Under the pieces are notes generated by a model that did no database searches, was not told the origin of the DNA, and saw only the letters and a list, made by a program, of their open reading frames with translations. From Lachnospiraceae bacterium (GTDB taxonomy: Bacteria; Bacillota; Clostridia; Lachnospirales; Lachnospiraceae), in the NCBI GenBank assembly GCA_017472605.1, contig JAFUPV010000012.1, positions 470 through 64,469 on the forward strand: 64,000 nt of DNA, in the 5' to 3' direction. Numbering within the stretch: the stretch's first letter is position 1; the number at the start of each line of letters is the position of its first letter. Below, in pieces: positions 6,470 through 25,275 of the stretch. The position numbers were made by a program, and so were the translations under genes.

Positions 6470-6522
6470 AGAATCAGTTTTTACAGGAACCCGTTTTCCC
6501 GTTTCGTTCAGGAGGTATTTAT

Positions 6523-7562: not shown

Positions 7563-10112
7563 TCACTCCTGATTCGTCCCATTCTCCTGCAGGCGGAACA
7601 TGACAGTAAGGATTCTTCTGACACATTCCTGCAGTGTCTCTCTGTCCAGACTGCCATCCGCCATTGCCTGCTGAATGCTTTCCACATCTTTCGGGCATCC
7701 CGGCATGATCAGATCATTTCCGGCTGCGGCGCACATCCACGGAATACTCTGTCCCGGTCTGGTTGTGCTCCAGTCCGTCATAATCAGTCCCAAAAATCCC
7801 CACTCCTCTCTTGCCGCCCGGGTGCAGAGATCCCAGCTGTTTGCTGCATGCTGACCATTAATCTGATTATAAGAGGTCATTATCGCCGCAGGCTGTGCTT
7901 CTTTCACTGCAATCTCAAATCCGCGAAGATAAAGTTCACGGAGTGCCCGTTCCGAAAGAACACTGTCCGACCACCTTCTGTTATTCTCCCGATTATTACA
8001 CGCAAAATGCTTGATGGTCGTTCCTCTGCCTGGCACAGACTGCACTCCTCTGGTAATGGCAGCCGCCATTTTGCCGCTCACCAGCGGATCCTCGGAATAA
8101 TATTCAAAATTTCGTCCGCACAGCGGATTTCTGTGGATATTCATGCCCGGAGCCAGCCACAGGGAAATTCCAAACTCCTCCATTTCACGGCCAATCGCCT
8201 GACCAACCGTTTCCAGAAGCGCCTCATCCCAGGTCTGCGCCAGCAATGTACCTACCGGGATCGCTGTACAATACTGATAGTACCGCTTCCTATGTTCCGA
8301 TTCTTCATGGGAAAGGAAGAATCCGCCTTCCAGTGCGCCAAGAATTCCCGGGTTTTTGATTGTTCCGTCTCTGCAGTCCACCTCATAGCTTTTTGCCAGC
8401 CGAAGTCCGGCAGGCCCGTCTGCCATGATCATTCCGTCAATGCCATAGTCCGCTTCCAGAACACTGCTTGTTTCTCCGGCCGAACCCGGCACACGGATTC
8501 CTGCTGCTCCAATGGTCTGGTCATATTCTGCGCTCAACTCACCAACTACCATGGAAATCAACTGGCTGTCACTTAATTTCCGCACCAGTTCTTCTGTTTT
8601 CTTTTCTATCACTTCGATCCGGCTCCCTGCCGTCATTCCGGATCCGCTTTCCCCTTTTTCCTTCCCCGGCACAAAGAAAACCACAGGAAGCTTCTTTTCT
8701 TCTGCCAGCGCATTCCACGTTTGTTCCTGCCTAAGACGTGCCTCCCGATCACAAACAAGTTCCTCCAGCGGCTCTTGGACCGGACATATGTGCCGTACCG
8801 GTTCCAGCAGGGTCTCCCGCTCCACCAAAACCACGCCGGACAGCTCCAGATTTCTGGAAGAATTGCCGACCCAGATTCCATATCTTCCTTTTTCAATCAC
8901 CCAGCCGGACTGTACTTCATCAAACGATGCGATTGCCTTCCCATCAAAAGTGATTGTAAGGTTCTGACTCTCCCCCGGTGCAAGCAGTTTCGTCTTGGCA
9001 AATCCTGCCAGTCTCCGGAATTCTTTCGGCAGCCCGGTCTGAGGACAGGACACATAGACCTGCACCACTTCCCTTCCGCAAAACTGCTCGCCCTTATTTG
9101 TTACCAATACCGTTACTTCCACCCGGTTTTCCCCAGCCATTCCCGCTGTGATTTTTTCCGTTTTTATCGAAAATTCCGTATAGGAAAGGCCGAATCCGAA
9201 GGGATACACAACTTCTTTTTCAAAGCTGTCAAAATACCGGTATCCCACATAAATTCCTTCCTCATAACGTTCTTTCAACGCATCCGGACCGGGTCGGCTG
9301 AAGGTTTCTGCACTGGGATAATCGGCATATTCCCATGCCCAGGTATCCGTCAGCTTCCCGCCTGGTGTTGCCTTTCCCATCACCAGATCCGCCAGCGCAT
9401 GTCCGCCTTCCATCCCTGGCTGCGAAACATAAATCAGAACCTTCAGATTGGGAATCGCCAGAATATCCTTCAGATCAATTGGACCTCCCGTATTCAGAAT
9501 GACCGCTGTGTTCCTGCAATGCTCCGACAGCCGGACCAGCTGTTCTTTCTCTTCCCGGGTCAGATAGTAGTCTCCCTCCTGCGTGAACCGATCCGCACTT
9601 TCCCCAGCTGTTCTGCTGATCACATAGAATCCGGTGTCTGCTCCTTCAAAATCACTGTCTTTCATGGAATCTCCCGGCGGCATGTGAAAACGGTGTCTGT
9701 TGTAAGAATCAAGCAGCCGTTTGCTTTCGCTCCGCTCTGTTTCTTCCATAATAATACTTCGCCAGTCTTCCCGCGCCTTCTGATAGACTGCGGCAAACCG
9801 ATCCAGCCATTCCTGATTGCTCAGTTCCAGACCAGCCTCTGCAAACCCCTGATAAATGCTTACCGATTCCCGCTCGTTCACATCACCGGAACCGCTTCCA
9901 CCCTTAACTGTTTTTACTGCTCCGCCTCCAAAAAGCGCAACACGCGCTCCTTTTTTCAAAGGCAGTACCCCTTCGTTTTTCAGCAGTACAATCCCCTCCG
10001 CTGCCGCTTTCCTTGCCACCTCCCGGTTTTCTATCTCTCTTCTGGATACCGCATTGTCCGGGGTTCCGCTGTATCTTCTCTTTCCCCTGTCTGTTTTCAC
10101 CATTCCGCCCAT
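7563..10112 (-). CDS. GH3 beta-glycosidase with inverted domain order
   Basis: AAAEGIVLLKN and YEEGIYVGYRYF in the N-terminal half; DGPAGLR, PGMNIHRNPLCGRNFEYYSEDP, KHFACNN and IMTDW in the C-terminal half. Confidence 0.92.
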   Translation of the reverse strand: MGGMVKTDRGKRRYSGTPDNAVSRREIENREVARKAAAEGIVLLKNEGVLPLKKGARVALFGGGAVKTVKGGSGSGDVNERESVSIYQGFAEAGLELSNQEWLDRFAAVYQKAREDWRSIIMEETERSESKRLLDSYNRHRFHMPPGDSMKDSDFEGADTGFYVISRTAGESADRFTQEGDYYLTREEKEQLVRLSEHCRNTAVILNTGGPIDLKDILAIPNLKVLIYVSQPGMEGGHALADLVMGKATPGGKLTDTWAWEYADYPSAETFSRPGPDALKERYEEGIYVGYRYFDSFEKEVVYPFGFGLSYTEFSIKTEKITAGMAGENRVEVTVLVTNKGEQFCGREVVQVYVSCPQTGLPKEFRRLAGFAKTKLLAPGESQNLTITFDGKAIASFDEVQSGWVIEKGRYGIWVGNSSRNLELSGVVLVERETLLEPVRHICPVQEPLEELVCDREARLRQEQTWNALAEEKKLPVVFFVPGKEKGESGSGMTAGSRIEVIEKKTEELVRKLSDSQLISMVVGELSAEYDQTIGAAGIRVPGSAGETSSVLEADYGIDGMIMADGPAGLRLAKSYEVDCRDGTIKNPGILGALEGGFFLSHEESEHRKRYYQYCTAIPVGTLLAQTWDEALLETVGQAIGREMEEFGISLWLAPGMNIHRNPLCGRNFEYYSEDPLVSGKMAAAITRGVQSVPGRGTTIKHFACNNRENNRRWSDSVLSERALRELYLRGFEIAVKEAQPAAIMTSYNQINGQHAANSWDLCTRAAREEWGFLGLIMTDWSTTRPGQSIPWMCAAAGNDLIMPGCPKDVESIQQAMADGSLDRETLQECVRRILTVMFRLQENGTNQE

Positions 10113-10168
10113 GGTTCCTCCGTTTCTATGATTCGCTCCCTAAAGTAAATCCATTTCCTTCGTTCCAT

Positions 10169-10312
10169 CACCAGGCACGCGTTCACCCCACTCCGCACCA
10201 GGCATGTTTTCACCTCACTCCGCACCAGGCACGCGTTCGCCGCGCTCCGCACCAGGCATGTTTTCACCTCGTTCCGCACCAGGCTCACTTCCGTTGCTTT
10301 CCGGCACCAGAC
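10169..10312. repeat. 27-bp tandem array, about 5 copies, alternating variants
   Basis: CACCAGGC starts at 10169, 10196, 10223, 10250 and 10277, with a degenerate copy at 10305. Confidence 0.9.
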
Positions 10313-11816: not shown

Positions 11817-11842
11817 ATCCCGCTTCCTCCCGGTAATCCTTT

Positions 11843-12544
11843 TTATAATTCTTCCACATACCGCACGCCGTCAATTTCCCGCAGCACATCCATCACCACG
11901 GCTCGCCTGCTCTTATCCTTCACTTCAATCGTTGCGATTGCAGTGGGCCCCTCACCCTTAATCCGGCTTTTTGATACCTCAAACATCACCAGCTTCAGTT
12001 CTTCACTGCGCAGCGCATCCCGGAATCCCCGAATGCTCTGGTTTCGCTCAAATTCCAGATACAGGTCATATACCTTTGCATACCTTGGCAGCAAATGATC
12101 CACATAGTTCAGGATTTTAAAGGTAAACAGCGCAAATGCGGTACCTAAAACAACGCCTTCCATGTAGCCGATTCCGGCTGCAAGCCCGAGACAGGCACAG
12201 GTCCACAGACCGGCCGCCGTTGTCAGACCTCTGATCTGATTTTTTCCGGTTACAATGATTGTACCGACTCCAAGAAAGCCCACACCGCTGATCACCTGCG
12301 CACCAAGACGGCCCAGATCCGATTCCGAAGGAAAATGCACGCTCATGTACTGTCCTGTCATCATGACCACCGCGGCGCCCAGGCAAACCAGCACATGCGT
12401 TTTAATGCCGGCTCCTCTTCGTTTGAGTCCTCTGTCAATCCCGACAGCCAGCCCGACAATCATCGCGGCAGACATGCGCAAAACCATTGACAGCAGGCTC
12501 CATTCCCTCGCTGTAACAACCAGCCATTTCCACATCTCATTCAC
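11843..12544 (-). CDS. MgtC/SapB family membrane protein
   Basis: GIDRGLKRRGAGIKTHVLVCLGA, RLGAQVISGVGFLGVGTI, GLTTAAGLW. Confidence 0.92.
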   Translation of the reverse strand: MNEMWKWLVVTAREWSLLSMVLRMSAAMIVGLAVGIDRGLKRRGAGIKTHVLVCLGAAVVMMTGQYMSVHFPSESDLGRLGAQVISGVGFLGVGTIIVTGKNQIRGLTTAAGLWTCACLGLAAGIGYMEGVVLGTAFALFTFKILNYVDHLLPRYAKVYDLYLEFERNQSIRGFRDALRSEELKLVMFEVSKSRIKGEGPTAIATIEVKDKSRRAVVMDVLREIDGVRYVEEL

Positions 12545-14216
12545 TCCATTCTGCTTCTTTTTTTCGGATTACACGTCCCCATCCGTCAAAATCCAGAATC
12601 ACCTCCGCAGTCTCGATGACGCCGCTGCCCCATCTGGAGAAAACGCAGGGGCTATCATATGTCTCATATGGAAATCGAACCGTTTCGCCATTAACCCGCC
12701 GTTCCTTCCGGTTCATCATCAGATTGGAGTAAGTCAGCGTCATGGTATCCGGATCCAGCCGCGGATGGCCGGCTCTTACCATCTCCTGAAACGCCGAAAA
12801 GCTTCCGCTCTCCTCCCGGGTCGAAACAACGCAGACCACCCCATGCTTTCTGCCGCAGCTGCGCACTTCTTTCTCCCGCAGATCCTCGCGTCCATCGCTG
12901 ATTCCCTGGGAAAACCACAGCGCTGCATATACCCTTTTATGGGCTTTCATCCACAGATAGTTTTCTTCCCGTACCACTTCCAGACGGGAAAACGGCACAC
13001 TTGCATGAATGAATCCTTCTTCCGACTCCGGTATGTCATAAGTCGCCATGGCCACATTCCCTTCACTGAAAAACTGTCCACAGCAGCAGAACAGATCTCC
13101 GGTCCAGTATCCATGCTCCTTTCCCTCCGGTCCACAGCTGCCCGGATGGTGGGTGAAGATGCGGATATCCTCCGTCGGCAGAATCGTCAGCTCCCATTCA
13201 TGCTGCTGATGATGGGCATACCAGGCAGCTTCGCTCCCTGCCGGATAGTCATCCTGCCAGGTCACACCGCCGATCATGTAATCCGGCGTGATGTAAGTCC
13301 GTTTGCTGATGCTTCCCGGAACCTGAGGAACCTGTCTGTGAGGGGTCTGGTATGTAATGCTGTGCAGATGCTTGCACTCTCTGTTTTCCCAACGTTCGGG
13401 ACGCGCCCGAAGAACGGCATATACATAGTCAGCCGGTCGGAATGTACTTGCTGCCGGCTCCAGGCAGGCACCACACGTCTCGTCCTCCCCAAAATAGAGC
13501 TGATACAGCAGATACATTCCCTTCAGCCGGAAGGAAAACGCATAGCGTTCATAAATTCTGCCATGAGCGCCGCCGTAAAATCCCTGTCCGGAACAGTCCA
13601 TGATCATATCCAGAAGCATCACATTGGCCGACATTTCCGCATACCGGCTCATTGGTTCATCCGCAAAATCATATAGATTCAGCAGAGCGGCAAACACCTC
13701 CAGTCCATAACCGGTCGAGTCAAACTCCGCCCATCCTCTCTGTGCCCGAAAGCGGATAAATTCCTGCAGAAAATCCCGATCCACAGCCGCCATCTCCGCT
13801 CCCTTCATCTGATATGGTTCAAAAAGCGCATCCGGATATCTGAGCGCATATAAATATCTGGCTTCATGGAACAGAAGCATGTGATTCTCTGATTTATACA
13901 CGCTCTCAAAGTCCCATTTGGTAAAGAATTCGTGGATCAGCTCCATGGTTTGCTTCGGGAGCCTGTCCTCCAGACTGTAGCATGCCCGGATCAGCTTGTG
14001 AGCCACAAAATCCGGTTCCCCCTGTAAAAAACGCCCCTGCCCTTTTGGATGAGGCAGTTCGAACCACTTTGCCGCCCGGTTCAGTCCGGCAATCGCTTCC
14101 TCATCCGTCTGCTCCTTCCACAAAAGCCTGGCAATCGCCTTCTCTCCGTAAGGATCATATCCAATCTCCCCTTCCAGAAGTTCCTTTTTTATCCTCTCAT
14201 ACAGTACCTGATTCAT
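12537..14216 (-). CDS. Uncharacterised 559-aa cytoplasmic protein, possibly lyase-like (helical toroid plus beta-sandwich)
   Basis: Long ORF overlapping both neighbours; helical N-terminal half with SENH, EFDSTGY and GGAHGRIY; beta-rich C-terminal half. Confidence 0.6.
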   Translation of the reverse strand: MNQVLYERIKKELLEGEIGYDPYGEKAIARLLWKEQTDEEAIAGLNRAAKWFELPHPKGQGRFLQGEPDFVAHKLIRACYSLEDRLPKQTMELIHEFFTKWDFESVYKSENHMLLFHEARYLYALRYPDALFEPYQMKGAEMAAVDRDFLQEFIRFRAQRGWAEFDSTGYGLEVFAALLNLYDFADEPMSRYAEMSANVMLLDMIMDCSGQGFYGGAHGRIYERYAFSFRLKGMYLLYQLYFGEDETCGACLEPAASTFRPADYVYAVLRARPERWENRECKHLHSITYQTPHRQVPQVPGSISKRTYITPDYMIGGVTWQDDYPAGSEAAWYAHHQQHEWELTILPTEDIRIFTHHPGSCGPEGKEHGYWTGDLFCCCGQFFSEGNVAMATYDIPESEEGFIHASVPFSRLEVVREENYLWMKAHKRVYAALWFSQGISDGREDLREKEVRSCGRKHGVVCVVSTREESGSFSAFQEMVRAGHPRLDPDTMTLTYSNLMMNRKERRVNGETVRFPYETYDSPCVFSRWGSGVIETAEVILDFDGWGRVIRKKEAEWSE

Positions 14217-16408
14217 TCCGGTTCTCCTTCCAGTTCCTTCCGTAATTCCCAGTACTCCGATCCCGCCGCCAGAATCACTCCAGTTCCATGATCATCATTG
14301 CAGATCGTAGGAATCGAAAAGTAGTACTCCGCTTCCATCGCGCAGCCGGATCCCATGCACACACCATATACATTTCCCCGTTTGTCAATGCTGTGCGTTA
14401 AAAGCCCTTTCCATGCCCTCTCCATCGTGTCAAGAAAATCCCTCTCCAGCCATCCATACCGGACACCTCTTGCAAACGCCAGCAAAAACATGCCTGTACA
14501 GGACGTTTCCAGATAGGAACCTTCCTCTGTCCGGTTCAGTACCTGATGCCACAGCCCGCTCTCATCCTGCAGTTCCCGGATTCTGTGGGCCATCTCATAA
14601 AACAGCTGTTTCTCCTTTGACACATCCACATGACCTTCCCCATACATCAGAAATTCAGACAGGGTCCACATGACCCAGCCGTTTCCCCTTCCCCACGGAA
14701 CCCGATTTGCCCGTTCCTCATGAGAAAAATAGATATGAGAAAACAAATGCTCGTCTTCCATGTACAGACGTTTCCGAAATCCGCAAATCTGCTGTGCCGC
14801 TTTTTGAAACCACGTGCTGTCCTTCGTCAGTCTGCCCATGCGGACAAGAAATGGACAGCTCATGTACAGGTCATCTGCCCACATGGTATCCACACGGTAA
14901 TAGGTTCCGTCCGCAAGCCGGGGAATGGTTTCCTCCGCCTGATACCGGATCCGATCGATCAGGGGAAGCAGATTTCTGTCATTGGAATCCAGATAGGCAT
15001 CGATCAGATTCATTCCCATGGTTCCGATGTTGTCCAGAACATTCATCTGCGCAGTCCTTGGCATAAAGGCGGGCATTACATGGGTTCTGATGTCGTATTG
15101 GATATAGTCAAACCAGGCGGCAAGCATGCTCATGTTTTCGCAGAACAGGCGCTGCCTTTCCCTGTCCCCGAAGCAGGCTGCCGCGTCCCGGATTCCATAG
15201 AAACCGACCATCAGCGCATAAAACCACTGGCCGAAAAATACGCTGTCCAGATAAGCGCGAAGCTCACTGCCGTCGCAGAAGCGCCAGTACACCGGCTCTC
15301 CCTTTGCATTGACAAACACCTTCGAGAAATCCCATTCATATTCCGGGCCATGACACTGGGTTCCGCAGAAGGGGCCGGCAAAGATGGCTTTATCGCCTGT
15401 TTTCCGGCCGGACTGCAGGAACGGAAGAACCAGGTTGGCCGTATCAAGGGACAGATACCAGTCATCGCCCCTTCGCCTGCACCGAATCAGCACCCGGTCC
15501 CCTTTTTCCAGATACGGCTCCGAATCTTTCTGCACCATCCCGTTCACCCAGATCTCCTCTGCCGTGCCGCAAAAAGAAAGACGATGCGCCCTGGCTGCCT
15601 CCGAGTAGACGTAGCACACATCTCCCTCCTGACACAAGTTCCGGAAATCAAAGGTCTCTCCCCGAGGAAACGTTTCTCCCTGAGGAAGCGTCTCTCCCGG
15701 AGGAAATGTCTCTCCCGAAAGAAGCAACGGCGGCCATGCGTAGGAAATGGCAGCCCATCCGTCATCGGTCCCCTTCCATTCATCCGCATGAAACAGCTGA
15801 CTCAGCGCAATTCCTTCTTCCCCTGCTCTCTCCTCCATCGGGAGAACCGCTCTTGCCCAAAACAGATAATCATTGGCCCACATGCCCGGATATCGCTTTA
15901 CCGACAGAAGCACTTCAAACGCAAATGGCTCCTCTGCTCTCTTCTCGCACAGGATCCGCACCGGATTCTCCTTCTCCGTTTTTACCCGGATCGGCAGATG
16001 AACCGGCTCCTCCAGGCGTTGATCCCATTCGTTCCCGCCGTTTTTCTCCCCCTGCCTTTCCTCCATTTTCTCATGGCTTCTTCCATCATAAATCAGCTGT
16101 TTTTCATACCAGACACAGACATTTCCCGATACATTCAGATAGATTTCTTCCTCCTGCAGACAGCGGATGCAAAAATCCGCAATCACAGAATCTCCCTCCT
16201 TCGCTTCCGGATACATCGCATCCAGATCCACCCGAAGACTCCCCAGCGCGCGCACATACCGGACAAAGGGGCATGGCTGAAACGGCCGGTAATGTACATC
16301 GGTTTTCGGTCTTGTCTGCAATGCGCGATCCATGATGGTGCGGATCACCTGCGCGGTTCCCTGGTCCTGTAAAATCATTTCCTGTCCATGGATTATTGTT
16401 TCATTCAT
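14213..16408 (-). CDS. GH105/GH88-type unsaturated glycuronyl hydrolase with an N-terminal extension of about 385 aa
   Basis: C-terminal MWADDLYM, HLFSH, WGRGNGW, GLWHQVL, YLETSCTGMF and DDHGTG motifs. Confidence 0.85.
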   Translation of the reverse strand: MNETIIHGQEMILQDQGTAQVIRTIMDRALQTRPKTDVHYRPFQPCPFVRYVRALGSLRVDLDAMYPEAKEGDSVIADFCIRCLQEEEIYLNVSGNVCVWYEKQLIYDGRSHEKMEERQGEKNGGNEWDQRLEEPVHLPIRVKTEKENPVRILCEKRAEEPFAFEVLLSVKRYPGMWANDYLFWARAVLPMEERAGEEGIALSQLFHADEWKGTDDGWAAISYAWPPLLLSGETFPPGETLPQGETFPRGETFDFRNLCQEGDVCYVYSEAARAHRLSFCGTAEEIWVNGMVQKDSEPYLEKGDRVLIRCRRRGDDWYLSLDTANLVLPFLQSGRKTGDKAIFAGPFCGTQCHGPEYEWDFSKVFVNAKGEPVYWRFCDGSELRAYLDSVFFGQWFYALMVGFYGIRDAAACFGDRERQRLFCENMSMLAAWFDYIQYDIRTHVMPAFMPRTAQMNVLDNIGTMGMNLIDAYLDSNDRNLLPLIDRIRYQAEETIPRLADGTYYRVDTMWADDLYMSCPFLVRMGRLTKDSTWFQKAAQQICGFRKRLYMEDEHLFSHIYFSHEERANRVPWGRGNGWVMWTLSEFLMYGEGHVDVSKEKQLFYEMAHRIRELQDESGLWHQVLNRTEEGSYLETSCTGMFLLAFARGVRYGWLERDFLDTMERAWKGLLTHSIDKRGNVYGVCMGSGCAMEAEYYFSIPTICNDDHGTGVILAAGSEYWELRKELEGEPE
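15654..15725. repeat. 4 x 18-bp in-frame tandem repeat (GETxPx) inside the GH105 gene
   Basis: gtctctccccgaggaaac / gtttctccctgaggaagc / gtctctcccggaggaaat / gtctctcccgaaagaagc. Confidence 0.9.
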
Positions 16409-16499
16409 CGTTCTGCTCTCCTGCTTTCGCCGAATCTCTCGTTATCGCGGCGCTCGTCTGATGAGTGCGCAAGCGCCCTCGCCTGACTCGCTGCTCGCG

Positions 16500-16542
16500 T
16501 AAATCTGACCGAACGTGTCACCGGCACGTTCGCCTGGATGTA
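16500..16542 (+). repeat. REP-like palindromic element, copy 1
   Basis: TAAATCTGACCGAACGTGTCACCGGCACGTTCGCCTGGATGTA; stem CGAACGTG/CACGTTCG; 38/43 identical to the reverse complement of 28470-28512. Confidence 0.8.
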
Positions 16543-16556
16543 TAAATAACGGAAAA

Positions 16557-16577
16557 GGGCGGTGAAAGACACCGCCC
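16557..16577 (-). terminator. Rho-independent terminator after the SBP gene
   Basis: GGGCGGTG-TCTTT-CACCGCCC followed by TTTT on the minus strand. Confidence 0.7.
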
Positions 16578-16595
16578 CCGCCCTGGTTCTGTTTC

Positions 16596-18179
16596 TTATC
16601 GATTTTCAGCGATCCACTCGTCGATCTGCTTCTGATAGTCATCAATGACATCCTGCACACCTGCGTCTTCCAGCTTCTTCATGAACTCCTCATAGCAGGC
16701 TTCCCAGCCGTCAACGCCCATAACGCCGGTTGTCAGCGTGTTCTTATACTCGTCCGCAACTGCCGCCACCTGACTGATCTGGGTCGCAATGTTTGCGGTG
16801 GAAGGCGCAAAGCCGATGAGAGAAGAGGAAACCGTATCCGGTGATTCGTTCAGTTCCTTCGCAAGCTCATACTGTCCGTCCAGAACCGCCTGATTCTTAT
16901 ACGCATAGAAGCTGTTTCCGATGATCCACTTCATTGCCGCATAGGAAGTGTCCTCACCGCCCTGGCTTCCCGCATACTCAAGCGTCTCGATTCGATCCGG
17001 ATCCTCCGCATCCTTGACATAATGCTCGCCTTCCAGACCAAACACAACGGTGTTGTAAATTTCTTTTCCAATCTCCGTACCCGTTGTCAGCAGCTCGATA
17101 AACTTCGCCGCTTCCTCCGGATGCTCACAGGTGGAGGAAATGCCGTTTCCGCCTGCCGCCCACTTGTACTGAATGTAATCGTACTGCTGTACAGGAATCG
17201 CAACCACGTCAAAGCCGTAGGATTCACTGTAAATCTCAGAAACATGCTCCGGCGTACCGATCTGCTCCTTCACGCAGAATACGGTAGAAATCTCGTCCAT
17301 CATGTGGCCATATGCGTAGTTCTGAAGATCTGTGCTGACGCCGTCCGGTGAGAAAATGCCCTTGTCATACCAGTCCGCATAAATTGCCCATTTCTCTTTG
17401 AACTCGTCATTCATGTACAGGTAGGAAACCTCATCGGTGCCGTCCTTTACCATAAATCCCTTGCCAAGCGCGTCATATGGCGTTTCAAAAGCATAGCCAA
17501 GCGTGCCGCCGACCTCACTGATGCTCAGGGTACTTGCATATTTCGTGTCACCCTCGCCGGCGCGGACAGCCATTACATATTCCTCCAGGCAGGCAGCCTT
17601 CTCGGTAATCGTCAGATCCCAGTTTGTCAGCGTCTCATACATCTCATCATAGTTTCCATACTTGTCCATATATTCCTTCGGGAACAGAATGTATGCACTG
17701 TTGAATGCATTCTGATAGTTGGGAACCATGTAGGTCTCTCCGTCAACCATACCCATCTTCCACAGCCACTCCGGCAATTCTGCCCTCAACTCATCGGAAA
17801 TATACGCATCCATCGGCATGAAGCTTCCATCCTCCACATGCTCCGCAAAGGAAGACAGGTTCACGCTGTTTAAGATGTCGATCTGCGCCTTGCTCGCCTG
17901 TGCCAGCAGCACCTGCTGATTATATTCCGATGAAACAAAGCAGTTAAAGTTTACCGATACATGTTCCATGCCGGGAACGGTTTTCAGCAGCTCATTGACC
18001 TTTGCTTCCACCGCGTCCGTATCCTCCTGCTGTCCGCAGCCTCTGTAATACCATTCCAGCAGAACCGGCTCCTTCTCCTCTCCGTCCTCTGCCGCAGCAG
18101 CCGGGCCTGCTCCCGCTCCAATCATCAGACCCATTGACAGCAGCACTGCCATTGATAATGCTCTTCTTACCTTTCTCAT
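16596..18179 (-). CDS. Carbohydrate ABC transporter solute-binding protein
   Basis: Start MRKVRR with RBS GGAGG; signal peptide; acidic SBP body with FGLEGEHY and KLEDAGVQDVIDDYQKQ C-terminus; follows two permease genes. Confidence 0.88.
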   Translation of the reverse strand: MRKVRRALSMAVLLSMGLMIGAGAGPAAAAEDGEEKEPVLLEWYYRGCGQQEDTDAVEAKVNELLKTVPGMEHVSVNFNCFVSSEYNQQVLLAQASKAQIDILNSVNLSSFAEHVEDGSFMPMDAYISDELRAELPEWLWKMGMVDGETYMVPNYQNAFNSAYILFPKEYMDKYGNYDEMYETLTNWDLTITEKAACLEEYVMAVRAGEGDTKYASTLSISEVGGTLGYAFETPYDALGKGFMVKDGTDEVSYLYMNDEFKEKWAIYADWYDKGIFSPDGVSTDLQNYAYGHMMDEISTVFCVKEQIGTPEHVSEIYSESYGFDVVAIPVQQYDYIQYKWAAGGNGISSTCEHPEEAAKFIELLTTGTEIGKEIYNTVVFGLEGEHYVKDAEDPDRIETLEYAGSQGGEDTSYAAMKWIIGNSFYAYKNQAVLDGQYELAKELNESPDTVSSSLIGFAPSTANIATQISQVAAVADEYKNTLTTGVMGVDGWEACYEEFMKKLEDAGVQDVIDDYQKQIDEWIAENR

Positions 18180-18208
18180 CTGAAAACCTCCATGATTTTT
18201 ATTTATTG

Positions 18209-19087
18209 TCATCCCTTCACGCCTCCCAGTGTCATACCTTTGGTAAAATACTTCTGGAAGAAGGGAAATGCAACCAGTACCGGTCCGGCTGCGATGATAG
18301 CCATCGCAAAGCGCAGCGTTTCCGTCGGAACCACCGCGTCGCCAACATAGGAACCCATTTCCGTTGCCTGTTTCAGGTATTCCACTTCCCGGATCAGCCG
18401 CTGCAGCAGATACTGCAGGGAGTACAGATCCGGATCGCGGATATACAGCATCGATGTCATCCAGTCATTCCACTTTGTCACCAGAAACAGGAATGCAACG
18501 GATGCAATTCCTGGCTTTGCCAGCGGAACGACTATTTTAAAGCAGATATACAGTTCCTTTGCGCCGTCGATTTTTGCCGCCTCGATCAGCTCATCCGGAA
18601 TGCTCTGATAATTGGTCCGGATGATCATGACGTTGTACGCAGATACCAGTCCGGGAAGAATATACACCAGAATCTTGTCATCCAGATGAAGAACACTGGT
18701 CAGCAGGATGTAGGTTGGCACCATTCCGCCGGAAAACAGCATGGTAAAATAGACAAAAAAGTTCAGCTGCTTCTTCCAGATGAAATTCGGCCTGGACATG
18801 GGATAGGCCAGCATTGCCATGACAACGGTTGAAAGCAGCGTAGCCGCCAGTGTAAAGAAAATGGTGACTCCATAGGCACGGATAATCTTCATCGGATTGC
18901 GCAGCGCCAGTTCATATGCCGCCGTGCTGAACACCTTCGGTATCAGACGGTAGCCGCTCTGGATCAGTGTCGTTTCATCGGTGAAGGAAACGGAAATGAC
19001 CATCAGCAGCGGAAGGACATACATGACTGTTATCAGGATAAAAACAATGTGCAGACAGATCTGCCCCAGATTTTTTTTCTTCTTCAT
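18209..19087 (-). CDS. Carbohydrate ABC transporter permease
   Basis: EAA motif ELIEAAKIDGA, FSGGMVPTY, WNDW. Confidence 0.93.
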   Translation of the reverse strand: MKKKKNLGQICLHIVFILITVMYVLPLLMVISVSFTDETTLIQSGYRLIPKVFSTAAYELALRNPMKIIRAYGVTIFFTLAATLLSTVVMAMLAYPMSRPNFIWKKQLNFFVYFTMLFSGGMVPTYILLTSVLHLDDKILVYILPGLVSAYNVMIIRTNYQSIPDELIEAAKIDGAKELYICFKIVVPLAKPGIASVAFLFLVTKWNDWMTSMLYIRDPDLYSLQYLLQRLIREVEYLKQATEMGSYVGDAVVPTETLRFAMAIIAAGPVLVAFPFFQKYFTKGMTLGGVKG

Positions 19088-19098
19088 AGCCACTCCTC

Positions 19099-20031
19099 TT
19101 AAAACAGACAATTTTCCGGACTGATCTTTTTCACAACTGCATTGGCCAGCACAACGGTCAGAAATCCGGCTGCTGACTGGAACAGTCCGATGGCTGCGCC
19201 TCTTGCCAGATCTCCTGCCTGGAGCGCGCGATAGGTATAGGTATTAATGATATCCGTTACCGGATACAGGACTCCGGTGTTCTTCGGAACCTGGTAAAAC
19301 AGACCGAAATCTCCGGTAAACAGCTTGCCGATGGACAGGATGTTCTGAATGATTATAATGGGGAGCAGATGGGGAAGCATGACATGCCAGATCTGTTTGA
19401 TCTTATTTGCTCCATCCAGTCTGGCTGCCTCCAGCAGCCCCTCGTCCAGACTCATCAGGGAGGAATAGTAGATGACGCTGGTCACTCCCACATGGCCCCA
19501 TATGTATACAATCGTCAGGATCAGCGGCCATACACCAATCTGTGTATACCAGTCTGTCCTGCCTTTCCCAAGCGCCTCCAGCATCTGGTTCAGCAGGCCA
19601 TATCTGGAATGCAGGAAAACTTCTGCCAGAAATGCGACAACGACTGCCGAAAGAAAACGCGGAAACAGAATCACCGTGTTATACAGTTTCAGTGCTTTTG
19701 CATTTTTCAGGCTGTAAAACATCAGTGCCAGCGTTACCGCCGTTATGGTTCCCAGAATCATCCAGCTGAAATTATACAGGATTGTGTTCCGGATTGTCCG
19801 AACCGCATCTGCGGATGAGAAGAAGAACTTAAAATTGTCCAGACCGTTCCACGCGCTTCCCCAGATTCCCTTCAGCGGTTTATAGTTTTTAAATGCAATG
19901 ACAATGCCAAACATTGGTGCATAGTTGAAAATAAGGAGCAGCACAATTCCCGGAACTGCCAGCATTCCCATGCTGATGCTTTCGCGAACTGCTTTTTTCG
20001 ATGACTTTCCTCTCCTTCGTATCCCTTTCAC
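19099..20031 (-). CDS. Carbohydrate ABC transporter permease
   Basis: GTG start with RBS AAGGAGG; WNGLDNF, LLEAARLDGA. Confidence 0.93.
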   Translation of the reverse strand: MKGIRRRGKSSKKAVRESISMGMLAVPGIVLLLIFNYAPMFGIVIAFKNYKPLKGIWGSAWNGLDNFKFFFSSADAVRTIRNTILYNFSWMILGTITAVTLALMFYSLKNAKALKLYNTVILFPRFLSAVVVAFLAEVFLHSRYGLLNQMLEALGKGRTDWYTQIGVWPLILTIVYIWGHVGVTSVIYYSSLMSLDEGLLEAARLDGANKIKQIWHVMLPHLLPIIIIQNILSIGKLFTGDFGLFYQVPKNTGVLYPVTDIINTYTYRALQAGDLARGAAIGLFQSAAGFLTVVLANAVVKKISPENCLF

Positions 20032-20066
20032 GTCATTTGTTCCTCCTTGCCGCCTGTTGTGCTTTT

Positions 20067-20095
20067 ATTATGGCTTCCGTTTCCTCCTTTTTCAA
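20067..20095 (-). promoter_or_regulatory. Sigma-A promoter for the ABC operon
   Basis: TTGAAA-17bp-CATAAT on the minus strand. Confidence 0.5.
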
Positions 20096-20257
20096 TCCTC
20101 GTTTCATGCTTTTCTCCTCGTTTCGTACCAACCTCCGGAAATTGGTCTCCGGCGATTGAATTTTCGCTGATTTTCCGCTATGATTTACTTACCTTAACAG
20201 ACAAAGTGCGTTCCTCTTTGTCCTGTGCAAATATGTACTGTTTACCGGAGGTTTCTC

Positions 20258-21511
20258 ATGTATCAGCTCATGATCGTGGATGATGAGATCATGTCTCAGG
20301 AAATCATCTCAAACTATATCAAAAGCAATCTTCCCGCCTATCAGATCACCCATGTCTGCAGCAACGGCGCGGATGCACTTGCCTGCTTTCGCCAGAAACC
20401 GGTTGATCTCGTGCTGGTTGATATCCGCATGCCCGTCATGGATGGAATCGCTTTCATTGAAGAACTGAACCGGCTGACTTCCGACTGCATTCCCATAATC
20501 ATCAGCGGCTACGCGGAATTTGAATATGCCCAGTCGGCAATGAAGCTTGGCGTGAATCACTATCTGCTGAAGCCCCTTGATTTTCTCGAACTGGAGCGCA
20601 GTCTTTCGGCCGCCGCCCATTCCCTGAATTCCAGGAGGCAGCTTCTTGCCTCGCTAAACGTTGCCGAAGACAATCAGGAGATTTTTTTCACGCAGCTCCT
20701 TTTGGGCTCGTATCAGACAAAGGACCAGGCCCTCATCCAGTTTTCCTCTCTGCGTTTCCCCTTTTCCTATGACGCCTGCAGCGGAATCTGTCTGCAGATC
20801 CGGTTTCATTCGCTGGAGCCGGAACGTCTGGAACTGGATCCGCTCTATATGGGAATTAAAAATCTGCTTCATCTGCTCTTTTCCGCCCGATATCTGGTGC
20901 TCCTTTCTGCCAGAAACAGCACCTGCAGATACCTTCTCATCACCGATCATCTTGCGGACAGCCGGTTTGAGGAACTGCGCCTTCAGGCGCTCCAGCTGTT
21001 GGGTATTGAGATCACAGTAGAGCCTCTTCTCTCGTTTTCTTCGCTGGAGGAGCTGCGTACGAAAAAACCGGATTTTCTTCTTTTGGATTCCCGGCCGGCG
21101 AATCCTCCCTTCTCATTGCCCGGGGAACCGGTTCCATTTCTTTCCGTTCTGGACGAACCGGGACAAAAAAGCACAGCAGAAGCCATTCAGTCAAGCATTG
21201 AACAGGCGATTGTCTATATGAAGGAACACTTTGCGGAGGATTTAACGCGGGAAGCGGTGGCGGAAAAGGTGTACATGTCAGGTGCGCACTTCAGCCGGTG
21301 CTTTAAGCTTGTCATGCGGACTTCCTACAAAGATTATCTGACAGAAATCCGCATGCAGAAGGCCATCGAGCTGCTGAAAACCAATTGCCGGATCCAGGAC
21401 ATTGCCAGACAGGTGGGCTATCCGAACCCCAACCGTTTTAACATCAACTTCCGGCAATACACATCCTATACACCATCGGAATACCGCAGGCAGGTTCTGA
21501 AGCTGATCTGA
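20258..21511 (+). CDS. Response regulator with C-terminal AraC domain (YesN-like)
   Basis: MIVDDE, VDIRMPVMDG, YLLKP; AraC HTH SGAHFSRCFK...VGYPNPNRF; start moved to MYQL (RBS GGAGG). Confidence 0.93.
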   Translation: MYQLMIVDDEIMSQEIISNYIKSNLPAYQITHVCSNGADALACFRQKPVDLVLVDIRMPVMDGIAFIEELNRLTSDCIPIIISGYAEFEYAQSAMKLGVNHYLLKPLDFLELERSLSAAAHSLNSRRQLLASLNVAEDNQEIFFTQLLLGSYQTKDQALIQFSSLRFPFSYDACSGICLQIRFHSLEPERLELDPLYMGIKNLLHLLFSARYLVLLSARNSTCRYLLITDHLADSRFEELRLQALQLLGIEITVEPLLSFSSLEELRTKKPDFLLLDSRPANPPFSLPGEPVPFLSVLDEPGQKSTAEAIQSSIEQAIVYMKEHFAEDLTREAVAEKVYMSGAHFSRCFKLVMRTSYKDYLTEIRMQKAIELLKTNCRIQDIARQVGYPNPNRFNINFRQYTSYTPSEYRRQVLKLI

Positions 21512-21623
21512 AACGTTCTGCCCCTTTCCGGCCGGTCCCGCCTGAAGTCTGTACCGCCGAACGTCTTTCCCACCGGATTTTCTGCTTTCTCTCCCGTTCC
21601 GATTTCAATCAGGAGGTATCTGT

Positions 21624-23357
21624 ATGAACCAGATCAAAAAACTGGTATCGAATTCGTTTGTAAAAAAGTGGTTTTTTACCCTTCTGCTTTTCGTAACCAT
21701 TCTGTTTATCTGCTTCATGGTATACACAAGAATTCATTCCGTGCGTCAGCTGCAGGTGGAATTTACTTCCTACAGCGAACTGCAGACAGAACGGATTTCC
21801 GAGCATCTGGATGACAGCATCCAAAGCTGCAGGAGGGTGGGCGCACTGCTGTCACTGGACGAGATGATCAACATCTATCTGTTTCGGGAGAACGCGGTCT
21901 CCGTCTTTCCGGATCTCTACACACAGATCCGCTCCCAGCTGACCGCCTATACGCAGGGGCTTCCCGTGATCGACTCCATCTATCTGTACCCTGCTTCCCA
22001 AAAAGAAATCTTCCTGTCCGATTATTCCGTTCCGGTTCCGTCCGGCAGCTTTTCCGATACCAACTGGATTTCCGCGCTGGATGGGCTGGACGATATGACT
22101 TACATATACCGGAAGAAAAACAACCGGTATCCCTACCTTGCCACCCTGCTCATACCGATTCAGCAGTCCGGCCAGAAGGCTCACATTGTCCTGAACATGA
22201 ACCTGTACCAGCTTTCCATTCTGGAAGACAAGAACGACAACTCGTTCCAGAATATCTATATTGTGTCGGAGGAAGGCGATATTCTTTACCGCACCTTCCA
22301 GCAGAATATGCCGGAAGACAGAAGCGCTGTCCCGAACCTGCACCATTTCGATGGAACTGCCGACTATCTGAGCTATTACGCCGATACCGACTCGCCTTAC
22401 ATTTACGTCCAGCAGCATTCATCCAAATTTCCATGGTACTACATCACCATCACGACTCCTCAGAGCTTCCGGGTTCCGTCCTATGACTTCTTTGGTGAGC
22501 TGCTGTCGTTTCTCCCGTGGCTTCTGGTTCTGGCAATCATTCTTATCATCTGTCTGGTGCTGATGTTCACCCATCCGCTGCGCACCATCTCCACGTTTCT
22601 GGATGCGCCCATCAAGCAAATGCCGGACAATATTTCCGAACCTGAGGTGCAGAAAATCATCCGGCAGTTTATTAATTATGTTCATACCAACCAGTCCCTT
22701 TCCGATGAACTGAACCATCAGATGGAGCTGCAGAACAATGCGACCTACTGTGCGCTGCAGGCGCAGATCAATCCACATTTTCTGTTTAATACACTGAATA
22801 TGATTCGCAACATGGAAATCGAAAGCCTTGGCTATCACCATGAAGTGCCAAACACAACTCTGACGCTGTCCCGACTGCTTCAGTACGCCATCAGTTCCAC
22901 CGAACTGGTTCCCCTGAAGACGGAATTCTATTACATGGATCTTTACCTGACCATCCTGAATCAGCGTTACCGGCAGGCTCTGCAGTTTGAGATTCAGACG
23001 GACTCCCATTCCGATGACCTGCTGATGCCGAAAATGATCCTGCAGCCGCTGGTGGAAAACGCAGTCTTCCATGGCTGCGCGCCGGCGCTGGATACCTGCA
23101 ACCGGATTATGATCACTGCCCGGAACGCGGACAGCACCTGCACCATAACGATCCGTGACAACGGAATCGGCATTGCGCCGGACGCACTGAACGAGCTTCG
23201 TCAGTCACTGACAAACATGAATGAAATCCCCAGCAATTCCATTGGCCTGCAGAACGTAGCGTTCCGCATGTATCTGACCTATGGAAAGGAGTTTCATCTC
23301 ACCATCGACAGCACAGTTGGAGAAGGAACCTGCATCACACTTTCCTTCCCGGCCTGA
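21624..23357 (+). CDS. Sensor histidine kinase (YesM/LytS-like)
   Basis: Two transmembrane segments; LQAQINPHFLFNTL, LQPLVENAVFHG, DNGIG, IGLQNV. Confidence 0.93.
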   Translation: MNQIKKLVSNSFVKKWFFTLLLFVTILFICFMVYTRIHSVRQLQVEFTSYSELQTERISEHLDDSIQSCRRVGALLSLDEMINIYLFRENAVSVFPDLYTQIRSQLTAYTQGLPVIDSIYLYPASQKEIFLSDYSVPVPSGSFSDTNWISALDGLDDMTYIYRKKNNRYPYLATLLIPIQQSGQKAHIVLNMNLYQLSILEDKNDNSFQNIYIVSEEGDILYRTFQQNMPEDRSAVPNLHHFDGTADYLSYYADTDSPYIYVQQHSSKFPWYYITITTPQSFRVPSYDFFGELLSFLPWLLVLAIILIICLVLMFTHPLRTISTFLDAPIKQMPDNISEPEVQKIIRQFINYVHTNQSLSDELNHQMELQNNATYCALQAQINPHFLFNTLNMIRNMEIESLGYHHEVPNTTLTLSRLLQYAISSTELVPLKTEFYYMDLYLTILNQRYRQALQFEIQTDSHSDDLLMPKMILQPLVENAVFHGCAPALDTCNRIMITARNADSTCTITIRDNGIGIAPDALNELRQSLTNMNEIPSNSIGLQNVAFRMYLTYGKEFHLTIDSTVGEGTCITLSFPA

Positions 23358-23472
23358 ACTGCGGTACATGTTTCTGCACAGACCGCTTCCGGTCACTGGT
23401 ACTGAAATCATTGAAGCGGCGCACCAGCCCGGGTTCCAGACGGTGCACCGCTCAGAAAGAGAGGATATTATT

Positions 23473-24186
23473 ATGAATTTCATTATGGATCTTCACACCC
23501 ATTCCGTCGCCTGCGGCCACGCCTACAGCACCTTTTTTGAAAATGTATGCGCCGCTTACGAAAAAGGACTTGCTGTTTACGGCTTCAGCGAACATGCTCC
23601 GGCCCTGCTGAAAGGAACGGAACCGGCTTTTTTCGCAAATCTGAAGATACTTCCCGGCGAATACAAAGGGATGCGGATTTTAAAGGGATGCGAAGTGAAC
23701 ATCATTGATCTGGAAGGTCATTTTGATCTGAATGAGAAACTCCTTGGTTCCCTGGATTATGTGATTGCCAGTCTCCACATTGACTGTCTGAAACCAGGTA
23801 CGGCCAAAGAGAATACGGACTGTCTGATCCGCGTCATGGATCATTCCTTTGTCCGGATCATCGCCCATCCGGATGATTCCCAGTTTCCGCTGGAATATGA
23901 ACGGCTGGTGGCTGCCGCGAAGGAAAAGAAGGTGCTTCTGGAAGTGAACGAAAGCTCGTTAAAACCGACCTCTTCCCGGAAGGGAGGCCGGGAGCATGTG
24001 CTTACCTATCTGGAACTCTGCAAGTGCCATCGTGTCCCTGTTATTCTCAACACAGACGCGCACTATGCGCCGCTGATCGGGGATTTTACCAATGGACGGC
24101 GGGTTTTGGAAGAGGTGGATTTTCCGGAAGAGCTGGTGGTAAATACCAGCGTTGAGATGCTTCGGCGGTATTTGCCGGTGGTGTAA
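23473..24186 (+). CDS. PHP domain phosphatase (YcdX-like)
   Basis: DLHTHS..CGHAYST, FSEH, GCEVN, IASLH, IAHPDD, NTDAH. Confidence 0.9.
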   Translation: MNFIMDLHTHSVACGHAYSTFFENVCAAYEKGLAVYGFSEHAPALLKGTEPAFFANLKILPGEYKGMRILKGCEVNIIDLEGHFDLNEKLLGSLDYVIASLHIDCLKPGTAKENTDCLIRVMDHSFVRIIAHPDDSQFPLEYERLVAAAKEKKVLLEVNESSLKPTSSRKGGREHVLTYLELCKCHRVPVILNTDAHYAPLIGDFTNGRRVLEEVDFPEELVVNTSVEMLRRYLPVV

Positions 24187-24198: not shown

Positions 24199-25080
24199 TT
24201 ATTCCTTTTTCTCCTCCCGGTCATACAGATAAAGATATAAATCCTCCAATGTCGGCACGGCCTCTTTCCACTCCTCCCCGGGTTCCCGGTCACTCAGCAC
24301 CTTCAGGCGCACGCGGTCACCTTCCCGTGTCACCTGGCTGACCGGATACTTTTGGGAGATTTCCTCCCAGTTTTCATAGGGAACCCACACATAAAACATG
24401 TTTCCCTGCAGAGCGTCTGTGCAAAGCTTCTGCAGATTTCCGGACATGCAGATTTCCCCTTCCCGAAGGAATACCACCTCTTTTGCAATCATTTCTATGT
24501 CCGTCACAATGTGAGTTGCTATGATCACAATTTTGTTGAAAGCCACCTGAGAGATCAGATTGCGGATCCGCACCCGTTCTTTGGGATCCAGTCCCGCTGT
24601 CGGTTCGTCCAGAATCAGTACCGCCGGATCACCAAGCACTGCCTGTGCGATCAGCGCCCGCTGCCGCATTCCGCCGGAGAAACCGCCAAGGCGTTTCTGA
24701 CGGACATCCGCCAGATTTACCATCGGAAGGATCCGGTCAATCTGCCGCTTTGTCTCTGCTTTCGTCAGCCCCTTTAACGCTGCCATGTAATACAGAAACC
24801 GTTCCAGCGTCATGGCAGGGTAGAGCTGCTGCTGCTGCGGGACAAAGCCAATTTTTTCCCGGTAGCGCTCCGCAAGCGTGCGGATGTCTGTCCCGTTAAA
24901 GGAAACCGAGCCGCTGTCTGCGCTCAGATTGTCTGTCAGAATGTTCATCAGTGTCGATTTTCCGGCTCCGTTTGGGCCAAGAAGACCATAGACGCCGTCG
25001 GTAAATGTGTACTGAAACAATTTCAGTGCCTGCTTCTTTCCATAGGATTTTGATAATCCTTCGATACGCAACTCATTCAT
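24199..25080 (-). CDS. ABC transporter ATP-binding protein (export/multidrug type)
   Basis: GPNGAGKST, FSGGMRQR, LDEPTAGLD. Confidence 0.95.
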   Translation of the reverse strand: MNELRIEGLSKSYGKKQALKLFQYTFTDGVYGLLGPNGAGKSTLMNILTDNLSADSGSVSFNGTDIRTLAERYREKIGFVPQQQQLYPAMTLERFLYYMAALKGLTKAETKRQIDRILPMVNLADVRQKRLGGFSGGMRQRALIAQAVLGDPAVLILDEPTAGLDPKERVRIRNLISQVAFNKIVIIATHIVTDIEMIAKEVVFLREGEICMSGNLQKLCTDALQGNMFYVWVPYENWEEISQKYPVSQVTREGDRVRLKVLSDREPGEEWKEAVPTLEDLYLYLYDREEKKE

Positions 25081-25230: not shown

Positions 25231-25275
25231 CACCGATTCAGGCATTACCAACTCTGGCATTACCGATTCCGGCAT
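25231..25275. repeat. 3 x 15-bp tandem repeat at the permease stop codon
   Basis: caccgattcaggcat / taccaactctggcat / taccgattccggcat. Confidence 0.85.

Follow-up and report, generated by a model that had tools for sequence, protein, structure and literature searches.

Among described systems, the rhamnogalacturonan loci of Bacillus subtilis (yesLMN-yesOPQR... and ytcPQ-yteP-yteR) presumably come closest in layout to the sugar locus examined here, which occupies positions 7563-24186 of a 64,000-nt stretch of Lachnospiraceae DNA (that whole stretch is called the window). Common to both is a YesM/YesN-type kinase with an AraC-type regulator beside an ATP-binding cassette (ABC) importer of the CUT1 type that has no ATPase of its own. 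Both also encode a cytoplasmic GH105, which in B. subtilis (YteR, PDB 1nc5, matched by the window enzyme at 2.9e-21) strips the unsaturated uronate from imported oligosaccharides. In B. subtilis the unsaturated end is made outside the cell by PL11 lyases, whereas in the window a cytoplasmic protein of lyase fold, here called U559, is encoded beside the GH105. The window further differs in a 385-aa extension on the GH105 and in three appended genes, for an MgtC-family protein, a metallophosphoesterase fused to a TIM barrel (MPE-TIM) and a GH3.

The architecture of the operon is in itself ordinary and of a known kind, an ABC oligosaccharide operon regulated by a two-component system (TCS), with an eliminase and a GH105. 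On balance we consider it probable that the operon imports and degrades a uronate-containing oligosaccharide, with U559 carrying out an elimination, the GH105 releasing the product, the GH3 trimming what is left and the rest of the tail being accessory. U559 would deprotonate glucuronate or galacturonate at C5 and eliminate the substituent at O4. The leaving group could be the next sugar, as for an exo-lyase, or water, as for a dehydratase, and the non-reducing end would then carry a 4,5-unsaturated uronate. The GH105 would hydrate and free this residue, and the permuted GH3 would trim the leftover neutral sugar.

Enzymes of families GH88 and GH105 act only on unsaturated uronates, and each therefore depends on another enzyme to introduce the double bond. 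Eliminases other than lyases are known to prime them, in pathways that also use GH3 and GH78 (PMC12269599, PMC8511951), and two unrelated families of such priming dehydratases beside GH88/GH105 were recognised only in 2021 and 2025 (PMC8511951, PMC12269599). For example, the polysaccharide utilization locus PUL25 of Bacteroides caccae contains a PL35 lyase, a GH88 and a 'GH154' glucuronate dehydratase (PMC12269599). It shares with the window the pairing of an eliminase with an unsaturated uronyl hydrolase, and PL35 enzymes (8khw, 9o3q and 8khv) are the nearest structures to U559. The conserved active-site residues of PL35 are of types (Arg, Glu, Tyr and His) that are also found among the invariant residues of U559; mutagenesis of PL35 has implicated these four types and found four of six conserved active-site residues essential (PMC12269599). 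In contrast, PL35 has no sequence relationship to U559 (TM-scores ~0.36-0.39), and PUL25 is a Sus-type locus whereas U559 is a cytoplasmic protein of a Gram-positive ABC operon. Chondroitin is an unlikely substrate of U559, since neither a hexosaminidase nor a sulfatase is present.

The alternative ulvan pathway of Formosa agariphila combines the dehydratase P29_PDnc and a GH105 with GH3 and GH78 enzymes (PMC8511951). Its eliminase, GH105 and GH3 have counterparts in the window operon, and GH78 genes occur both in related loci and at another place in the window. The logic, that an exposed uronate is made unsaturated for the GH105, would be the same; the likeness drawn here is one of enzyme set. 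That pathway is marine, in contrast to the gut and soil loci considered here, from which sulfatases are absent. A further parallel is the arabinogalactan-protein (AGP) system of Bacteroides thetaiotaomicron, which pairs a PL27 L-Rha-alpha-1,4-GlcA lyase with a GH105 (PDB 5noa). There the exo-lyase uncaps a glucuronate, which in its unsaturated form is then released by the GH105. The window GH105 matches 5noa at 4.3e-12 and is closer to 3k11 and YteR. PL27 and PL26 were each tried as a structural counterpart of U559 and set aside, as neither is among the top 50 Foldseek matches listed.

U559 has no match to a Pfam or NCBIfam family. A word-indexed search gave 235 close homologues, and an exhaustive profile search (E<=0.001) gave ~3,105 representative clusters at 50% identity, distributed over gut Clostridia, Paenibacillus, Planctomycetota, Verrucomicrobiota and Latescibacterota. 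The only functional name in the family is that of a UniRef Paenibacillus homologue, 'heparin-sulfate lyase N-terminal domain-containing'. In the AlphaFold model (pLDDT 92.6, from a 59-sequence alignment) residues 1-270 form a helical domain and residues 275-555 a beta-sandwich, the same order of N-terminal toroid and C-terminal antiparallel beta-sandwich as in the PL8/12/15/17/21/35 class. When the model was compared with the PDB by Foldseek, 18 of the top 19 matches were lyases of this toroid and sandwich class (E 2e-7 to 6.5e-4). Among them are PL35 GAGases and a chondroitinase, lyases of PL8 that act on hyaluronate, chondroitin-AC and xanthan, and exolyases of the PL15 type for alginate and heparin; the one exception is the lyase-like dermatan-sulfate epimerase 6hzn. 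Foldseek probabilities for the 19 are 0.96-1.00, with one at 0.84. Residues E110, N111, H112, E164, Y170 and R220 are invariant in the superfamily down to 21% identity and Y222 is nearly so. These are types of residue on which Tyr/His lyases rely, and they may correspond to the catalytic Tyr/His and the Asn/Arg/Glu carboxylate neutraliser of that class.

The genomic company of U559 points the same way. A GH88/105 gene is the immediate neighbour of a U559 homologue in 19/73 genome loci, in both gene orders, and this adjacency spans Lachnospiraceae, Paenibacillus and other Clostridia. One protein of 1385 aa (P0241), whose gene comes right after that of a DUF3502 solute-binding protein (SBP), joins U559, the N-terminal extension and GH88/105 in a single chain; elsewhere in the family U559 is fused to an SGNH esterase, a BNR sialidase-like domain or CBM96. 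Judged from its modelled fold and these associations, U559 is most likely a beta-eliminase, either lyase or dehydratase, that makes the unsaturated uronate for the GH105. An earlier note on this DNA had counted several members of the operon as having no assignable reaction. That no longer fits the 559-aa protein, to which a role can now be assigned from the lyase-type fold, the GH88/105 adjacency and the P0241 fusion. A 575-aa protein of locus L135 was tried as a relative of U559 and rejected, because hhalign gave a probability of <=0.2 and the protein is a CehA/McbA metallohydrolase. Literature searches on new lyase families near GH105 and on WbsX-type hydrolases returned nothing relevant.

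In the window GH105, the GH88/105 domain covers residues 394-720 (195.7 bits vs a cutoff of 26.6), with the catalytic part at ~14213-15253. Besides YteR and 5noa, its PDB sequence matches are 3k11 (3.1e-29) and 4ce7. The catalytic Asp presumably lies in the (M)W-x-D-D motif conserved in YteR/UGL. An MWADD motif occurs in the window enzyme ('TMWADDLYMSCPF'), and its counterpart in P0241 is 'TMWADDIFMSCPF'. The N-terminal extension of ~385 aa (15254-16408) matches no family: no Pfam match was found at E<=1 in nine orthologues, nor any match in the PDB, and a word-indexed search gave one fragment only. Inside the extension an 18-nt tandem repeat (3.8 copies, 15650-15717) encodes GETFPx peptide repeats.

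The TCS, the ABC importer, the extended GH105 and U559 are treated here as the core of the system. The complete operon order is found in one relative only, a metagenome-assembled genome (MAG) labelled Faecousia (L001), which has kinase and regulator and, divergent from them, permease, permease, SBP, GH105, U559, MgtC, fusion and GH3. Because the whole gene order recurs in this independent MAG at 45-81% protein identity, the arrangement is not due to chance. The core is found repeatedly in Lachnospiraceae: in the cultured Lachnotalea sp. AF33-28 (L002) and in L008, L010 and L011, with the TCS of L008 seen as the regulator only, and also in L093, where the regulator is present on a contig that stops short of any kinase. 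In L007 the part from ABC to GH105 and U559 is present, with no TCS match. What follows the core varies. No same-strand gene comes next in L002 and L008; L010 has a CE15 glucuronyl esterase and a GH78, L011 a 1,995-aa extracellular WbsX-like/CBM/GDSL protein, and L093 a metallo-beta-lactamase-fold (MBL) gene with the MPE-TIM fusion and then a GFO/IDH/MocA gene. The loci of Paenibacillus combine a regulator, permeases and an SBP with U559, a short GH105 and a giant WbsX-like protein. The synteny search that the earlier note had called for thus bears out a two-component-regulated ABC sugar locus centred on an unsaturated-uronyl hydrolase, a description supported by the family matches and by the recurrence of the core (L001, L002, L008, L010, L011 and L093). 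A fixed unit of the eight minus-strand genes, as that note implied, is not supported, since MgtC, MPE-TIM and GH3 trail the core in L001 only.

Several results weigh against this account. The structural matches of U559 have TM-scores of 0.32-0.42, with one outlier at 0.19, and the lyase assignment is structural only. At the sequence level its profile gave a single, spurious match among PDB chains (E=1.1), ten distant homologues contain no PL Pfam domain, and hhalign against a DSE-like_N protein gave a probability of 0.2. GH88/105 is not adjacent in 54/73 U559 loci. Genes for an extracellular depolymerase and for an ABC ATPase are both missing from the operon, and the tail genes join the core in 2-3 lineages only. 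KduI/KduD-like genes of uronate catabolism were not noticed among the window ORFs (open reading frames) scanned, a survey that was incomplete. Finally, the window sequence was found only in gut-metagenome DNA runs and in no RNA run.

The features of the locus are collected in the table. All eleven ORFs mapped in the earlier note were recovered at the same positions. Their order is likewise upheld, with the permeases, SBP, GH105, the 559-aa ORF, MgtC, MPE-TIM and GH3 following one another on the minus strand and the regulator, kinase and PHP protein divergent on the plus strand. Independent gene calls on a 105-kb gut-metagenome contig that carries identical genes give the same genes. The close spacing is also as described: neighbouring genes overlap by 4-13 nt or are separated by gaps of <=26 nt, with the two exceptions of 187 nt between SBP and GH105 and 102 nt between MPE-TIM and GH3. 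Judged from their N-termini, none of the enzymes of the operon has a signal peptide, so the catabolic steps would be cytoplasmic.

Features of the locus at 7563-24186, in order of position in the window
Feature	Position	Strand	Basis or remark
GH3 exo-glycosidase, circularly permuted, beta-glucosidase-like, 849 aa	7563..10112	-	Pfam; last gene of operon
MPE-TIM, GpdQ/Rv0805-like metallophosphoesterase fused to xylose-isomerase-like TIM barrel, 533 aa	10215..11816	-	Metallophos_2; Foldseek
MgtC/SapB-family membrane protein	11843..12544	-	Pfam MgtC PF02308 1.3e-33, 116.4 bits vs cutoff 31.4
U559, (alpha/alpha)-toroid and beta-sandwich lyase fold, 559 aa	12537..14216	-	AF2 model and Foldseek; proposed uronate beta-eliminase
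GH105/GH88-type unsaturated uronyl hydrolase, cytoplasmic, 731 aa	14213..16408	-	Pfam Glyco_hydro_88 (PF07470) 1.4e-57
GC-rich hairpin, 10-bp core stem, 5-nt loop, then UUUUCCGUUAUUUAU	16551..16583	-	RNA fold; 13 nt past SBP stop codon
Solute-binding protein, LplA-like, 538 aa, C-terminal DUF3502	16596..18212	-	DUF3502 1.4e-18; 81% identity to L001
ABC permease 2, LplC-like	18209..19111	-	Pfam BPD_transp_1 1.1e-12; 78% identity to L001
ABC permease 1, LplB-like	19099..20031	-	Pfam BPD_transp_1 5.6e-17; 79% identity to L001
Divergent intergenic control region	20032..20224	.	Between regulator and operon; promoter-like hexamers
Response regulator, REC and AraC-type HTH	20225..21511	+	Pfam Response_reg 3e-23, HTH_18 4.7e-21; divergent from operon
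Sensor histidine kinase, YesM-like	21624..23357	+	His_kinase PF06580 1.9e-17; HATPase_c above cutoff
YcdX-like PHP-domain phosphoesterase	23473..24186	+	NCBIfam PRK09248 1.3e-75, residues 65-298; Pfam PHP

The importer consists of two BPD_transp_1 permeases and an extracellular SBP, and the oligosaccharide would enter through this LplABC-type system with an ATPase encoded elsewhere. The sole ABC ATPase gene nearby (24199-25080) was considered for this role and rejected, as it is of the DrrA/ABC-2 exporter type. The N-terminus of the SBP is hydrophobic and signal-like; it has no lipobox Cys before about residue 59, which is unusual for a Gram-positive ABC SBP.

Part of the 187-nt gap between SBP and GH105 is occupied by a strong terminator-like hairpin. 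A hairpin directly after the SBP gene is kept in 7/7 loci examined (the window, L001, L002, L007, L008, L010 and L011), while the whole spacer between SBP and GH105 in the orthologous loci is 62-97 nt in five and 336 nt in L010. From its sequence and position, it is probably a leaky terminator or a stabiliser of the mRNA 3' end. The single unbroken transcript proposed in the earlier note has accordingly to be revised to what is probably attenuated read-through from the transporter genes into those of the enzymes, by which transporter message would exceed enzyme message.

The divergent regulator and kinase are a recurrent feature of these loci. A PF06580 kinase and a REC-AraC regulator lie beside the transporter in L001, L002, L010 and L011, and both genes are syntenic there; in L008 and L093 the regulator is the only one of the two. 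The kinase would sense the sugar outside the cell, and the AraC-type regulator would turn on the divergent operon. The match of the kinase to an extracellular Cache domain is weak (dCache_1 3.4e-5, 23.9 bits, below the cutoff of 45). In the independent gene call the regulator has 417 aa, so its start is probably ~33 nt downstream of 20225. Promoter-like hexamers were located in the control region at 20095-20067 (minus) and 20156-20184 (plus), in a number equal to that expected by chance. More generally, the consensus scan for promoters and terminators gave counts no higher than chance and did not pick up the SBP hairpin.

The third plus-strand gene, that of the PHP protein, appears not to belong to the system. 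No terminator was found in the interval between it and the kinase gene. Its ORF opens at 23281, and as the family match begins at M65 the gene start is probably at 23473. A PHP homologue is found beside none of the related loci, and the membership suggested in the earlier note was rejected on this synteny.

At the other end of the locus, the GH3 has its Pfam domains in permuted order: C-domain (PF01915) at 41-311, Fn3-like (PF14310) at 348-419 and N-domain (PF00933) at 610-837. Its best PDB match is 2x40 (2e-145), and 5wug and 5k6l have the same permuted topology. The nucleophile Asp of GH3 enzymes sits in an S/T-D-W motif, and 'IMTDWS' is present in the window enzyme. No NCBIfam equivalog score comes anywhere near its cutoff, so that these models assign no specificity. 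The protein is 64% identical to its L001 counterpart, and 14 nt separate the end of its gene from a convergent LacI gene.

MgtC, the fusion and the GH3 (and PHP) could be neighbours brought together by recent rearrangement and acting on unrelated substrates, with a functional unit of TCS, ABC, GH105 and U559 only. The tail is missing from 5/7 related core loci, the GH3 trails the operon in the window and L001 only, and the fusion family is found in many unrelated contexts. The 102-nt gap before the GH3 is filled with a tandem repeat; this 27-nt repeat (4.3 copies, 10169-10284) runs across the MPE-TIM stop codon, where it adds a disordered tail (PGAERGE-like, pLDDT <50) that is absent from homologues of ~495 aa. 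However, the genes from GH105 through MPE-TIM overlap or are <=26 nt apart, with MgtC translationally coupled to U559, and RNA folding of the 102-nt gap gave no stable hairpin or terminator before the GH3. The links also recur independently: U559 with MgtC in L055, where ROK, U559 and MgtC form a free-standing trio; MgtC with the fusion in L081 and L105; U559 with the fusion in L093; and the fusion with GH88 in L084, L133 and L135. We regard such a patchwork of unrelated neighbours as quite unlikely. The tail is better described as a mobile accessory module that is genuinely linked to uronate loci, and MgtC with MPE-TIM would be such a module joined to the core in few lineages.

The fusion protein itself is conserved. 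Its phosphoesterase half covers residues ~1-215 and its TIM barrel ~216-500, followed by the disordered repeat tail. The family (360 homologues, typically ~495 aa) keeps the fusion even at 26% identity. In the window protein Metallophos_2 scores 33.6 bits vs a cutoff of 27. Most homologues carry PF01261 (AP_endonuc_2, the xylose-isomerase-like TIM barrel); in the window protein the TIM half is below Pfam significance, with only a faint CbiR match. The five metal motifs of the phosphoesterase are kept, with D12, H14, G46-D47, G74-N75, H133 and H162/H164 invariant or >=90% conserved in 45 homologues, and E353, D398, H429 and E476 are invariant in the TIM half. Foldseek searches with the AF2 model (pLDDT 91.8) returned 3d03 and 2hy1, of the GpdQ and Rv0805 type, together with 3wqo and 1yx1. 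The glycerophosphodiesterase GpdQ and the class III phosphodiesterase Rv0805 share with the phosphoesterase half the fold (TMt 0.62-0.70, rmsd 3.5-3.7 A) and the full dinuclear-metal motifs. Unlike them, the window domain is permanently fused to a TIM barrel and embedded in carbohydrate loci, and by sequence it shows no significant likeness to GpdQ (E 0.8). For the TIM half, the structures that match best are tagatose-epimerase-like barrels, with 3wqo at the top; a comparison with PDB sequences gave no link to Endo IV, CbiR or epimerases. The spacing of its invariant His, Asp and Glu may be Endo IV-like.

The surroundings of the fusion were compared over 14 distinct contexts of the Clostridia type. 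An RNase Z/PhnP-like MBL gene lies immediately 5' of MPE-TIM in 11/14, and GH88 or GH105 is part of the gene string in 6/14 (the window, L001, L093, L084, L133 and L135). MgtC is adjacent in 4/14 (the window, L001, L081-83 and L105). L134 and L135 have in addition a fusion of His_Phos_1 with Metallophos and a CehA/McbA PHP-like hydrolase. P0240 is an apparent fusion of MBL with a member of the MPE-TIM family, as read from precomputed Pfam domains only. More distant homologues sit among aldo-keto reductases, GFO/IDH/MocA proteins, MR/MLE proteins and other TIM barrels. A PFL-like enzyme was seen in one MPE-TIM-family locus (L126:12524-14743), with no activase seen.

These contexts bear on two other accounts of the tail. 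In the first, which sharpens the earlier note's idea of a phosphorylated or otherwise modified uronate glycan, the substrate would be a uronate glycan decorated or bridged by phosphodiesters, such as a bacterial wall or capsule polymer or the head group of a plant glycosyl-inositol-phosphoceramide (GIPC), and MPE-TIM would be obligatory before the GH105, with an MBL-fold, PHP-type or histidine-phosphatase partner in other genomes. The intact metal motifs and the phosphodiesterases GpdQ and Rv0805 as best structural matches fit such a role, as do the position of MPE-TIM directly upstream of GH88 in L084, L133 and L135 and the fact that in the window, L001 and L093 one operon contains it together with both GH105 and U559. 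So do the near-constant MBL gene on its 5' side with the apparent P0240 fusion, the additional phosphatase-like genes of L134/L135, and L081, where the module comes after a transporter that includes a TOBE_2 ATPase and a multi-family (SBP_bac_1/6/8/11) SBP. We read the L081 transporter as Ugp/Pot/Afu-like, a type that often carries organophosphates. Against it, the PHP gene of the window is syntenic nowhere, and no phosphoesterase follows U559 in L002, L007, L008, L010 and L011 (downstream genes are not resolved in L007). The distant contexts also speak of sugar-acid redox metabolism and not of phosphate metabolism, and the TIM half best resembles sugar-epimerase-like proteins. We consider this account unlikely.

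In the second, it is the TIM half that would act on the uronate, as a metal-dependent 4,5-dehydratase priming saturated uronates for GH88/GH105 or as an isomerase, analogous to KduI, of the 4-deoxy-5-hexosulose-uronate released, so that the tail would serve uronate processing and not phosphate removal. Its residues E353, D398, H429 and E476 are like the metal site of sugar epimerases and isomerases, its best structural match is 3wqo, and the fusion is tightly adjacent to GH88 in three independent loci with no recognisable lyase. Unrelated folds are also known to act as uronate dehydratases beside GH88/GH105 (PMC12269599, PMC8511951). However, this leaves the MBL partner without a role, and likewise the phosphoesterase half, conserved and apparently active as it is; many contexts of the fusion also contain no GH88/105. 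In our view this account is very unlikely. With U559 as the eliminase and the tail as an accessory, our best guess is that MgtC and MPE-TIM remove a phosphodiester-type decoration or otherwise process the uronate product. A literature search on the combination of phosphoesterase, TIM barrel and MgtC returned nothing relevant.

Hints to the substrate come from the relatives of the core. The CE15 and GH78 genes of related loci, with GH78 also adjoining U559 in L059, L063 and L071, and a second sugar locus in the window point to oligosaccharides that contain rhamnose and uronate. Candidates would be rhamnose with glucuronate or galacturonate as in AGP/gum-arabic caps, rhamnogalacturonan I (RG-I) or microbial polymers. 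Giant extracellular proteins (1,200-2,040 aa) adjoin U559 homologues in 11 loci, for example L011:11711-17698, L017:12703-18243 and L013:10017-14057. They contain 'Glyco_tran_WbsX' (PF14307) with carbohydrate-binding modules (CBMs), Cu_amine_oxidN1, Big_2 and sometimes a GDSL esterase, and these WbsX-domain proteins are candidates for the missing extracellular depolymerase. At another U559 locus (L025:3369-7377) a PFL-like glycyl-radical enzyme has a radical-SAM activase beside it.

The rest of the window contains further carbohydrate genes. The flank at 1-7548 is a starch/maltodextrin set with GH13 (2692-4362), GH77 MalQ (4459-6102) and LacI (6523-7548), the last convergent with the GH3; a MatE transporter and a GH43 fragment are also found there. 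On the other side, two proteins without Pfam matches (603 and 432 aa) and a second DUF3502 SBP lie at 25275-30150, between the ABC-2 ATPase and an island of low GC content (30200-39300, GC 0.39-0.42 vs ~0.50 either side). The island encodes an ABC-2 type exporter (31259-33590), two small secreted paralogues (30303-30671 and 35075-35470) and a small ORF with no Pfam match (35712-36107), with a BlaR1/M56-like gene (36129-37289) directly downstream of that ORF. The island looks acquired, and possibly has bacteriocin or immunity functions. The second sugar locus (39607-59117) contains two GH78, a GH106-like protein, two GH42 beta-galactosidases, an SBP, two permeases and a PF06580 kinase of its own, with a SASA-type acetylesterase further along. 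This locus suggests that the organism targets rhamnose- and galactose-rich glycans.

In its widest form the proposal would make U559 the founder of a large unclassified family of uronate beta-eliminases and MBL, MPE-TIM and MgtC an unrecognised Firmicutes pathway for phosphodiester-bridged uronate glycans, such as bacterial wall and capsular polymers or the plant head groups named above. Taken as a whole, this combination is in our view very unlikely. The repeated pairing of MPE-TIM with GH88/GH105, MBL and MgtC is in any case a testable lead to an unknown step of uronate-glycan catabolism. With its lyase fold, wide distribution and occasional fusion to GH105, and with no annotation in Pfam or NCBIfam, the U559 family would be a candidate for a new CAZy family. 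As a third family of priming partners, it would close gaps in our ability to predict the breakdown of pectic, arabinogalactan, algal or microbial acidic glycans by Firmicutes of gut and soil.

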